In this document: in pieces, positions 4,506-5,915 of the stretch
How the letters are laid out: every line of letters begins with the position of its first letter
Numbering within the stretch: the first letter of the stretch is position 1
Virus record (IMG/VR): IMGVR_UViG_2778261360_000013
Location: 1-7,797 of that record
From: a virus
Lineage: Duplodnaviria; Heunggongvirae; Uroviricota; Caudoviricetes
Reading direction: 5' to 3' (one strand)
DNA: 7,797 bases
Notes under the pieces: generated by a model
Databases searched by the model: none
What the model saw: the letters and a program-made list of their open reading frames with translations, nothing else
Told to the model about the DNA's origin: nothing
Program-made: the position numbers and the translations under genes

Positions 4506-4562
4506 TTGACTTTTTGAATAACTTTGGGGAAACTTGACACCAATAATGGGCGTTTTTTACAT
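4506..4562 (+). promoter_or_regulatory. pR'-like late promoter with Q-utilisation (qut) region
   Basis: TTGACT-TTTTGAATAACTTTGGG-GAAACT-TGACACC parallels lambda pR' (TTGACT-N17-TAAATT-TGACTCAACG as I recall it) in position and spacing. The -10 here is GAAACT, and a second perfect TTGACA lies at 4534..4539. It sits 43 nt after the Q stop. Confidence 0.5.
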
Positions 4563-4675
4563 GTCATTGATGAGTCTCAATAACCTGCCGCCGAGTAGTT
4601 TTTATGCTCTGAATTGTATTTGTGTAGTAAACATGCTGACTGCAATGTAATAGAGTTTTTTTAGCCTGTAACCTC

Positions 4676-4705
4676 TTGACGGCATTGAATTGCTTTTGTT
4701 ATGAG
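4676..4705 (+). promoter_or_regulatory. Putative sigma70 promoter for the membrane two-gene module
   Basis: TTGACG (4676..4681), 18-nt spacer, then TGtTATGAG (extended -10-like, hexamer 4700..4705), about 38 nt upstream of the ATG at 4743. Motif match only. Confidence 0.3.
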
Positions 4706-4742
4706 TTGTAAGCCAATGTTATCATCTTGTATTGGGGTGGTT

Positions 4743-5219
4743 ATGAAGGATGGTGCGCTGCTCAGGAGTTCTTCACTTTTTATTGCCTACATGGGATGCC
4801 TTGGATGGGGGAGTGCTTATTTCTATGGATGGGGTACTTCTTTTTACTACGGCTTCCCATGGTGGATTGTAGGTGCAGGTGTTGATGATGTTGCCAGAAG
4901 TTTATTTTTTGCAGTTATCGTCATTGCTATATTTCTTATCGGTTGGGGTATTGGTGTTGTATTCTTTTTCGCAGTGAAAAGAAAACATTCTATGCAAGAG
5001 CTAAATGTATTTCGCCTTTATTTTGCTGTGGAATTATTGTTTGTGCCGGCAATTATTGAGTTTTCTATATTGAGACAGAAGATTCAGGTACCTCTTTTGC
5101 TACTGTCAGCAGCGATTGCGCTGGCGGTTACAATTTCGATAAGATCTTATGGGCGATTTTTATCGGTATCATGCTTCTATGATAAGCCATTTATAAAAAA
5201 CATTTTTTTGAGATTGTGA
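4743..5219 (+). CDS. Hypothetical polytopic inner-membrane protein (~158 aa, three or more predicted TM helices, Gly/Trp/Tyr/Phe-rich N-terminal segment); unassigned family
   Basis: Long plus-strand ORF with no competing minus-strand ORF. Hydrophobic stretches LFFAVIVIAIFLIGWGIGVVFFFAV, LYFAVELLFVPAIIEFSIL and VPLLLLSAAIALAVTISI. Visibly AT-rich against the flanking phage genes. The stop is coupled to the next ORF (TGATG). Start is ambiguous (ATG at 4701, 4716 or 4743); 4743 is preferred because GGGGTGG precedes it and 4701 lies in the putative -10. Confidence 0.6.
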   Translation: MKDGALLRSSSLFIAYMGCLGWGSAYFYGWGTSFYYGFPWWIVGAGVDDVARSLFFAVIVIAIFLIGWGIGVVFFFAVKRKHSMQELNVFRLYFAVELLFVPAIIEFSILRQKIQVPLLLLSAAIALAVTISIRSYGRFLSVSCFYDKPFIKNIFLRL

Positions 5220-5458
5220 TGATTGCTTTTGTGGCATATTTCTGGCTTTTTTCATTTCTGACAGGATATTACAAACCACAGTTTAAGAAAGAATATGAAA
5301 TGATTAATTATAATGATGGTTGGTATTATGTTCTTGCTCGTTATGATAATTGTCTGGTTTTGTCTACTTCTTTCAATGCAGGTAGTAAAAGGTTTGTCAT
5401 TTATCAATCAGCACAAGATAAGAATCTTCAGGTTGATATTGTAAGGACCAGAATTTAA
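5219..5458 (+). CDS. Hypothetical small membrane-anchored protein (79 aa; N-terminal TM helix plus ~55-aa soluble domain); unassigned family
   Basis: ATG at 5219 overlaps the TGA of the upstream ORF by 1 nt (a GTG at 5216 is also in frame). N-terminal MIAFVAYFWLFSFLTGYY is hydrophobic and the rest is polar. Same AT-rich composition as the upstream gene. Confidence 0.6.
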   Translation: MIAFVAYFWLFSFLTGYYKPQFKKEYEMINYNDGWYYVLARYDNCLVLSTSFNAGSKRFVIYQSAQDKNLQVDIVRTRI

Positions 5459-5591
5459 TTGGCTGCATAAATAATATTTTAAGTTGCAAGTTGGCTATTC
5501 GTAGGAATAGAACCTTAGGCATGCTGAATGCGTTTTCTGAACATTGTTTTATAAACTGTGTCTGCTTGCTGTTGTGATCCTGCTTTTAGTG

Positions 5592-5702
5592 ATGGTGATG
5601 ATGGATTTCACCAGCAGGATAATGTTGGTACTGACTGATGGCGCTCTGGTCTGCGGCATTGTGGTATTGCTGTGGCCGATGATGAAAGAACAGAATGAAT
5701 AA
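5592..5702 (+). CDS. Possible small hydrophobic peptide (26-36 aa); speculative
   Basis: Frame MVMMDFTSRIMLVLTDGALVCGIVVLLWPMMKEQNE*. The internal ATG at 5622 is preceded by AGGA. Below the track size cut-off. A minus-strand track ORF (5586..5792, ending in a His run) overlaps it and looks spurious. Confidence 0.2.
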   Translation: MVMMDFTSRIMLVLTDGALVCGIVVLLWPMMKEQNE

Positions 5703-5888
5703 TTCTTGACTTTTTTGTTTACTGTTTATTAAAAAATCAACCGCATGGTGAATCCTCCTTGGAGGGGCTAAATGATCGAGTTTTAAGGGCACGTAGCGAG
5801 TTCTGTTTGATCATTGCAGAACTTAGCGGGAGGCGCCATGCGTACATCACTAATGTTATTTCCTTCTATCATTTTCCTTGTGAGTTCT

Positions 5889-5915
5889 GGCTGCGCATGG
5901 CGCGGCCTTTTTTTT
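5889..5915 (+). terminator. Rho-independent terminator (GC-rich hairpin plus T8); candidate tR'-equivalent
   Basis: GGCTGCGC-ATG-GCGCGGCC forms an 8-bp stem with one G-U pair, followed directly by TTTTTTTT (5908..5915). It lies ~400 nt upstream of the holin start, the same spacing I recall between tR' and S in lambda. Confidence 0.6.

Follow-up and report, generated by a model that had tools for sequence, protein, structure and literature searches.

A lambda-type late promoter with a decayed proximal terminator in front of a membrane-protein and PasD1 cassette in a lambdoid prophage remnant

In lysogens, late and lysis genes, and Shiga toxin, are kept silent by a textbook switch, antitermination by Q, which depends on a terminator placed right after a promoter that is always on. 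The DNA analysed here, a window of 7,797 nucleotides (nt) covering positions 1 to 7,797 of IMG/VR virus record IMGVR_UViG_2778261360_000013, raises the question of where transcripts from such a promoter end when other genes come first, as it carries two membrane-protein genes and a small RNA (sRNA) gene between the late promoter, pR', and the holin gene. A reading made from the sequence only had proposed that this module was inserted between pR' and its terminator, tR', and would thus be transcribed in the lysogen without Q. The explanation that we favour, with a confidence little above even, is that a lambda-type pR' with a decayed tR' runs into a self-sufficient cassette and that its transcript ends at the terminator of the sRNA PasD1.

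The late promoter and its leader

The following features of the promoter region and leader were located in the window.

3840..4463, + strand: lambda-type antiterminator gene Q, 207 amino acids (aa), 203/207 identical to lambda Q (PF03589, E 1.9e-54)
4506..4547, + strand: lambda-type late promoter pR' with qut, placed by alignment to lambda, HK97, HK022, P22 and mEp234
4506-4511, + strand: -35 element of pR', TTGACT
4512-4528, + strand: spacer of pR' with qut and the Q-binding element (QBE)
4529-4534, + strand: -10 element of pR', GAAACT (TAAATT in relatives; two positions differ)
~4542, + strand: +1 of pR', by alignment
4542-4547, + strand: -10-like pause element of pR', AATAAT (AACGAT in relatives)
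4551..4581, + strand: lineage-specific joint between the lambda-type pR' and a 434-type leader, matching neither parent
4585..4603, + strand: vestigial tR', a 4-bp hairpin CUGC/GUAG at 4585-4598 followed by U5 at 4599-4603 (+44 to +62)
4606..4662, + strand: long imperfect hairpin at 4606-4656 followed by U7, a weak terminator candidate

The promoter-like sequence noticed at this position proved to be a real lambda-type pR'/qut. The encoded Q was 98% identical to that of lambda, which places it in the lambda family, and lambda homology spanned 4302-4538 at 94% identity. The annotated pR'/qut sites of lambda-type relatives matched the promoter elements of the window, with the QBE lying between the -35 and the -10, an early pause element, and 3-4 mismatches in the 21-nt qut.

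No terminator was found on the + strand from 4464 to 5888 by a consensus terminator scan. A hairpin-plus-U-tail scan, which combined RNAfold energy per hairpin length with the d'Aubenton-Carafa tail score d (used comparatively only, because the energies come from modern parameters), yielded no candidate with d >= -10 between +1 and +1365, be it in the window, in phage 2B8 or in prophage PP4 of the enteropathogenic Escherichia coli (EPEC) strain E2348/69. Together with folding of the leader up to the ATG at 4743, these scans uphold the claim that no terminator separates pR' from the membrane operon, and both gave the hairpin at 5889-5915, at +1366 and with d +52, as the first strong intrinsic terminator. 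The window thus holds no tR' within ~50-200 nt of the start. Control terminators were found in lambda (tR' at +186, d +15), HK446 (+186, d +21), HK97 (+53, d +21), HK022 (+52, d +5), P22 (+54, d +18) and mEp234 (+52, d +13); a promoter-proximal terminator (d >= +4.7, between +52 and +186) was thus present in 6/6 of the lambda-Q phages that lack the cassette, and it is because all of these comparators carry one that its absence from the window is meaningful.

What occupies the place of tR' is a remnant. In phage 434, a prophage of E. coli O157:H7 and prophage PP2 of E2348/69, an annotated terminator, AAACCCGCTGCCGAGTGGGTTTTTTTT, lies ~55 nt past a Q82-type promoter, and the homologous sequence of the window reads AACCTGCCGCCGAGTAGTTTTT, at the position that tR' holds in HK97-type lambda-Q phages, about +52. 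When folding energy (dG) was compared with that of shuffled sequence (z), the remnant hairpin gave dG -2.2 kcal/mol and z +0.25, the 434 tR' -12.5 kcal/mol and z -3.6, and the HK97 tR' -19.1 kcal/mol and z -5.0. The match to lambda ends at 4538-4550, and that to 434 and O157 begins at 4582. The history of the locus is therefore one of promoter swap and tR' decay and not, as had been supposed, of a module inserted between pR' and tR': pR' is joined, ~10 nt past its start, to a leader whose tR' has decayed. Upstream of the cassette in an Escherichia albertii locus, the tR' hairpin, AAACCCGCCGCCGAGTGGTTTTTTTT, is intermediate, with a window-type loop and a 434/PP2-type stem, which suggests stepwise erosion of tR'. 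The leader of phage Evi shares the short motifs GGGCGTTTT and TTTTTTACA with the lineage-specific joint of the window, at 4548-4562.

Two other means of termination in the leader were considered. The hairpin at 4606-4656 with its U7 was rejected as an alternative tR' and is probably not functional as a terminator (dG -9.4, z -0.46, with 64/200 shuffles folding equally well; d -15.7), and its structure was not kept in 434. Rho-dependent termination was examined by composition only: the 200-nt leader (C 14%, G 22%) is G-rich and C-poor, unlike a Rho loading site.

The state of the terminator followed the type of promoter across related loci. The sample comprised 80 loci from IMG/VR that code for the identical membrane protein, one of them too short upstream to be classified. 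A terminator was present in all Q82-type cassette loci (32/32, d >= +22.9), and none was found in any of the cassette loci with a lambda-type promoter (47/47, best d -15.7 to -31.6). These counts support the reading that, in the lambda-Q lineage, no efficient intrinsic terminator parts pR' from the membrane genes. The lineage is common, since the 181-nt junction at 4490-4670 was found in 572/5426 complete E. coli genomes, among them O157:H7, O111:H8 and E2348/69, and at >=99% identity in 556. In phage 434, the O157:H7 prophage and PP2, the same membrane module stands behind a Q82-type Q, with homology to the window from 4582, and the cassette comes after a separate tR' that is intact and before an esterase gene. 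In phage Evi, which has a third type of Q, tR' (AACCCGCCCCCGTGCGGGTTTTTTT) is intact, and after it come tRNAs, other cargo, a PasD-type terminator and the holin gene; within positions 1515-3360 of this locus, a lambda-like -10 and pause element (TAAATT...AACGAT), three tRNA-like genes, different cargo ORFs (open reading frames) and a holin-proximal terminator were observed.

The PasD1 terminator and the portable cassette

The region from the leader to the holin gene contains the following features.

4647..6026, + strand: portable cargo cassette (moron) with a promoter block, two membrane-protein genes, and PasD1 with its terminator
4673..4729, + strand: conserved promoter-like block from a promoter scan, predicted +1 at ~4731-4733
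4676-4705, + strand: block site 1, TTGACG (4676-4681), N18, TATGAG (4700-4705)
4696-4725, + strand: block site 2, TTGTTA (4696-4701), N18, with an extended -10 TG (4717-4718) and TATCAT (4720-4725)
4743..5458, + strand: STM1630-family / PHROG 1521 membrane-protein gene, frameshifted (phrog_1521, E 1.7e-154)
5544..5702, + strand: DUF3927 ('TciB-like') small membrane-protein gene, 52 aa (PF13064, E 3.4e-14; phrog_1470)
5706..5735, + strand: PasD1 promoter-like site read from the sequence, TTGACT (5706-5711), N18, TAAAAA (5730-5735)
5743..5915, + strand: PasD1 sRNA, 173 nt, 173/173 identical to NC_011601:1060260-1060432
5889..5915, + strand: PasD1 terminator, stem at 5889-5907 followed by U8 at 5908-5915
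6026..6027, no strand: joint where a SASA/NanS-p-like esterase gene is missing
6258..6291, + strand: second intrinsic terminator, before the holin start, with an 11-bp stem and U tract (dG -15.7, z -4.95)
6324..6455, + strand: 5' part of a P21-type class II holin gene (PF04971, positions 1-41 of 64)

PasD1 is an abundant, Hfq-dependent and Northern-validated sRNA (Pearl Mizrahi 2021), whose published coordinates are NC_011601:1060260-1060432 (table S6 of that work). The window was identical to it over 173/173 nt at 5743-5915, and the target of the published Northern probe and the seed UGUGAG (5879-5884) both lie within this segment, so that sequence, seed and terminator all identify the sRNA as PasD1 and the hairpin at 5889-5915 as its terminator. 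This terminator has an 8-bp stem with 7 G-C pairs, a U8 tail and dG -15.2; the whole PasD1 fold gave dG -56.9 and z -2.1. The promoter-like site at 5706-5735 is suitably placed for the published 5' end at 5743. A full-length match to the Rfam family STnc100 (RF02076) at 5713-5918 scored 37.7 bits (E 1.5e-5), below the gathering threshold (GA) of 47; STnc100 has been tied to the EPEC PasD sRNAs, and PasD and STnc100 are treated as related families (Zhu, Shabalina and Storz 2026 preprint). Rfam matches to asX2 and SorX covered merely the terminator hairpin and were taken as chance, and a search for 'EcOnc13' found nothing. A 36-codon ORF at 5838-5948 with a strong Shine-Dalgarno sequence (GGGAGG, 5 nt, ATG) begins inside PasD1 and crosses the terminator; its start is paired with the 5' end of PasD1 in the predicted fold, and it has no stop before the transcript end. 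Published ribosome profiling (RIBOseq) found that ribosome coverage varies among the STnc100 copies of EDL933.

The hairpin at 5889-5915 had been proposed as the tR' equivalent, and this identification fell. Besides being the terminator of PasD1, the hairpin lies well past the end of the lambda match at 4538-4550, and it coexists with a separate tR' in 434, PP2, O157 and Evi. Its lambda-like distance from the holin start held numerically (409 nt, and ~405 nt in lambda), but the resemblance is a coincidence, because the spacer is not homologous to that of lambda. The segment 5916-6026 continues 434-type sequence up to the start of the esterase gene; 6027-6111 matches positions 6183-6269 of the 434 locus, the final ~90 bp of the esterase region, at the 3' end of the gene; and 6027-6330 matches the spacer from the 3' end of the esterase gene to S in 434 and Shiga toxin (Stx) phages. 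These matches indicate that the esterase gene, which is present in 434, 2B8 and PP2, is cleanly missing here. The terminator proximal to the holin gene has equivalents in 434 and Evi. Holin homology covered the first ~41 codons, and BLAST matches stop at ~6455.

The limits of the cassette were given by Escherichia sp. MOD1-EC7003, in which a Q-less cassette adjoining bioA showed homology to the window over exactly 4647-6026; the right end was the same in 434, 2B8 and PP2. No Q gene was found in the 1.4 kb of sequence examined upstream of this cassette. The cassette has thus been found in three contexts: Q82-type, lambda-Q-type, and Q-less next to bioA. In the last of these, positions 1407-2766 of the locus hold the whole cassette with an STnc100-like sRNA, on the bio side of the lambda attachment region. 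Conservation between the two cassettes was uneven: identity was 94.7% over the promoter-like block at 4673-4729, 92% over the membrane gene and 96% over the PasD1 terminator, and 60-78% over the other non-coding segments and the PasD body; against the 94.7% of the block, the other non-coding parts reached 62-77%. A promoter scan picked the TTGTTA-N18-(TG)TATCAT site in both. This is the pattern that a moron with its own predicted promoter and terminator would show, and the cassette has the strong 3' intrinsic terminator (5889-5915, d +52), the unrelated contexts and the expression from a repressed prophage that are expected of a moron.

The first gene of the cassette is disrupted in the window, where A6 at 5195-5200 stands in place of the A7 of E2348/69, O157, 434 and 2B8, and the frameshift splits it into ORFs 4701-5219 and 5216-5458. 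The intact gene encodes 238 aa in E2348/69, O157 and 434, and in an E. coli locus 99.8% identical to the window over 4300-6455 the gene is annotated as 'frameshifted'. The two halves have separate families in PHROGs, and databases often contain the gene in split form. NCBIfam, Pfam and PADLOC assigned no function to the STM1630-family protein. The 'TciB' lead for the second gene was rejected, as the name comes from phage P1 annotation (PHROG 1470) and not from experiments on this locus, and a literature search gave nothing specific.

Expression in a lysogen and competing explanations

Expression was taken from published RNA-seq of uninduced E2348/69 lysogens (baseMean, activating condition; Pearl Mizrahi 2021). 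This strain carries PP4, which has the same architecture as the window and was 99.7% identical to it over 4300-6455, and PP2, with its intact tR'. In PP4 and PP2, respectively, baseMean was 6.0 and 69 for Q, 147 and 226 for the membrane gene, 8652 (PasD1) and 11017 (PasD2) for the sRNA, and 5.4 and 3.5 for the holin gene. The DUF3927 gene is not listed for PP4 and gave 37 in PP2; the esterase gene is absent from PP4 and gave 102 in PP2. As reads of the module far exceed those of the holin gene and, in PP4, those of Q, the module is expressed in the uninduced lysogen and transcription halts before the holin. The comparison of PP4 (no tR') with PP2 (tR') was dropped as a discriminating test: the two membrane-gene copies differ at 3/717 nt, so the split of reads between them is unreliable and the effect of tR' loss on expression cannot be read from it.

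The explanation that we favour runs as follows. A lambda-type Q/qut/pR' is joined, ~10 nt past its start, to the leader of a cargo cassette common in prophages of enterohaemorrhagic E. coli (EHEC) and EPEC; in Q82-type phages the promoter-proximal tR' before this cassette is intact, and in the lambda-Q lineage its hairpin is down to 4 bp. Transcripts started at pR' without Q would read the membrane genes and PasD1 and stop at the PasD1 terminator ~1.37 kb downstream, with the terminator at 6258-6291 as a back-up stop. The PasD1 terminator would then do the work of tR' in silencing the lysis genes, and polymerase modified by Q would pass both terminators. The cassette itself would be self-sufficient, with promoter-like sites before the membrane gene and before PasD1, and we propose that these sites make its expression in lysogens independent of pR', which would be at most an extra driver. 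The sequence identities, the homology breakpoints, which loci have or lack terminators, and the expression of the module gene and PasD1 in an uninduced lysogen are shown by the data; we infer that this variant of pR' is active, that it reads into the cassette and that the internal promoters are used.

A stronger version is tentative, and we hold it to be rather unlikely: in the lambda-Q lineage the PasD1 terminator would have taken over as the operative tR', and every lysogen would make a 1.37-kb 'giant 6S-like' transcript encoding the membrane proteins and possibly processed into PasD1, as StxS is from the pR' leader. If true, it would couple late-promoter activity, lysogenic conversion and sRNA output.

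Several observations weigh against the favoured explanation. The GAAACT of the window has one consensus match fewer than TAAATT, the -10 of functioning lambda-type phages, so that this pR' may have little strength. Its transcripts may also end in the 200-nt untranslated leader, through weak termination at U5 or U7 or through Rho. The membrane gene of PP2, behind an intact tR', had as many reads (226) as that of PP4 (147), an assignment that is unreliable but argues that loss of tR' is not needed for expression; PasD2, also behind an intact tR', was as abundant as PasD1 (11017 vs 8652), which fits expression driven by own promoters. Finally, the lost early region, the frameshifted membrane gene and the truncated holin gene indicate that some parts of the window are no longer selected.

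Most of these points fit the best-surviving alternative, in which pR' contributes nothing, being a weak variant or losing its transcripts in the 200-nt leader through U5/U7, Rho or decay, and internal promoters drive everything. The conserved promoter-like block at 4673-4729 with its extended -10, and the existence of the cassette beside bioA with neither Q nor pR', speak for it as well. Neither weak hairpin, however, beats shuffled sequence or scores as a terminator, the composition of the leader is not Rho-like, and the copy-specific read assignment on which the comparison of PP2 with PP4 depends is unreliable. Moreover, lysis genes are present downstream of the junction in the deposited genome of phage 2B8, and pR' must drive the late genes there if that genome represents a viable phage. 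We regard this alternative as possible, though on balance doubtful; were the cassette promoters to do all the work, the cassette would be an ordinary moron and the finding would merely correct the identity of the terminator.

It is improbable that tR' has simply eroded, without functional consequence, in a cryptic prophage that has no late transcription to control. That the window is a remnant is clear: an integrase gene and an IS lie beside ninG, the genes for immunity and replication are gone, the membrane gene is frameshifted, and the holin gene, cut short, is followed by one of the NleG family. Nevertheless, the junction is kept at >=99% identity in 556 complete genomes and is also found in prophages with intact lysis cassettes (PP4 of E2348/69) and in the genome of 2B8. 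In addition, a diverged variant of this lineage in IMG/VR retains the -10 TAAATT together with the same weak hairpin, and the terminator-less state is therefore older than this remnant.

The literal sequence-only reading, with the module inserted between pR' and its cognate tR' and the latter at 5889-5915, has next to no chance, and the alignments have refuted it: the hairpin is indeed the first strong terminator after pR', at a distance from the holin start resembling that from tR' to S in lambda, but lambda homology ends at 4538-4550, the hairpin belongs to PasD1 and elsewhere accompanies a separate promoter-proximal tR' (434, O157, PP2, Evi), and the holin spacer derives from the esterase-to-S region of Stx phages with the esterase gene deleted.

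Neighbouring genes and known systems

ORF lists and Pfam scans revealed that the window is a lambdoid prophage remnant, with the following genes around the region described above.

1-978, - strand: integrase gene
between the integrase gene and ninG: IS3-family insertion sequence (IS) element (IS911-like orfA/orfB)
2570-3181: ninG
3178-3843: NinI-type phosphatase gene
6095..6184, - strand: convergent sRNA candidate (Esr41-like) with its own terminator (Rfam RF02676, 32.3 bits)
6685-7215: NleG-family type III secretion system (T3SS) effector gene, after the truncated holin gene

In 1-2570, the integrase gene and the IS3-family element directly adjoin ninG. Immunity, N, O/P (replication) and most of the nin region are absent from the window, and with the early region gone Q is left without any early promoter feeding it. 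The best full-length match to the window among complete E. coli genomes was 97.9%. The segment from Q to the module (4300-6026) was 98.3% identical to phage 2B8, which has the esterase gene and an IS before the holin gene. In the window, function has probably been kept only by the sRNAs, the DUF3927 gene and the effector genes. The ORF at 7387-7797, after the NleG gene, had no Pfam match.

The convergent sRNA candidate is Esr41-like at best, as its score of 32.3 bits lies below the RF02676 GA of 102. It has an 11-bp G+C-rich stem, a long loop and then a U tract, and it converges on PasD1. An annotated 132-aa ORF that overlaps it, E2348C_1013, had baseMean 2064 and log2FC -2.9 (about an 8-fold drop) in delta-hfq, behaviour more in keeping with an sRNA than with a protein gene.

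Compared with lambda late control (Q, qut/pR', the 194-nt 6S RNA and tR'), the window has a Q 98% identical and a -35, QBE, -10 and pause element homologously placed, and its pR' is expected to be constitutive, with predicted Q-dependent read-through to the lysis genes. In contrast to lambda, homology ends ~10 nt past the start, there is no proximal terminator (+186 in lambda, ~+52 in HK97, HK022 and P22), and the first strong terminator comes at +1366, after two genes and an sRNA.

In Stx phages, pR' is followed by tR', yielding the sRNA StxS, and then by stx (Sy et al. 2020, PMC7547250). These phages resemble the window in having cargo between Q/pR' and the holin gene, an STnc100/PasD-type sRNA after the cargo, and an Hfq-binding sRNA at the 3' end of the Q-independent pR' transcript. 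They differ in that their tR' (+258) lies upstream of the cargo, so that stx needs Q or its own promoter, whereas the cargo of the window lies upstream of the first efficient terminator; PasD1, furthermore, has its own promoter-like site, and StxS is processed from the pR' leader. When Stx phages and relatives (phage 21, 933W and DLP12-type regions) were compared with the window, the shared sequence was limited to the esterase-to-holin spacer and the beginning of the holin gene, and the window has none of the tRNA genes that follow tR' in Stx phages and Evi. If the favoured explanation is true, PasD1 would be the second regulatory sRNA, after StxS, tied to the pR' leader, and a widespread lineage of EHEC and EPEC prophages would carry cargo inside a constitutive leader transcript, with an sRNA terminator doing the job of tR'.

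An identical layout has been published for O157 prophages, with Q, pR', a moron coding sequence and convergent sRNAs (Tree et al. 2014, PMC4104026). The window repeats it as Q, pR', moron coding sequence, PasD1 converging on an Esr41-like antisense sRNA, and holin gene; a tR' between pR' and the moron is not addressed there, and the lambda-Q lineage studied here has none. The work on PasD1/PasD2 (EcOnc13) and STnc100 (Pearl Mizrahi 2021; Zhu, Shabalina and Storz 2026 preprint) describes the same sRNA, and the neighbouring Q, holin and Esr41-like genes match the reported synteny; the sRNA is no different, and a role of the PasD1 terminator as effective tR' is not discussed in those papers. Like classical morons (bor and lom of lambda, the HK97 morons; Juhala et al. 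2000), the cassette has a promoter-like site in front, a strong terminator behind, several contexts and expression in the lysogen; unlike them, it ends in an sRNA gene and, in one lineage, is exposed to an unterminated late promoter. The general layout has thus been known since 2014, and the window is probably a modest variation on it, in which tR' has eroded in the lambda-Q lineage.

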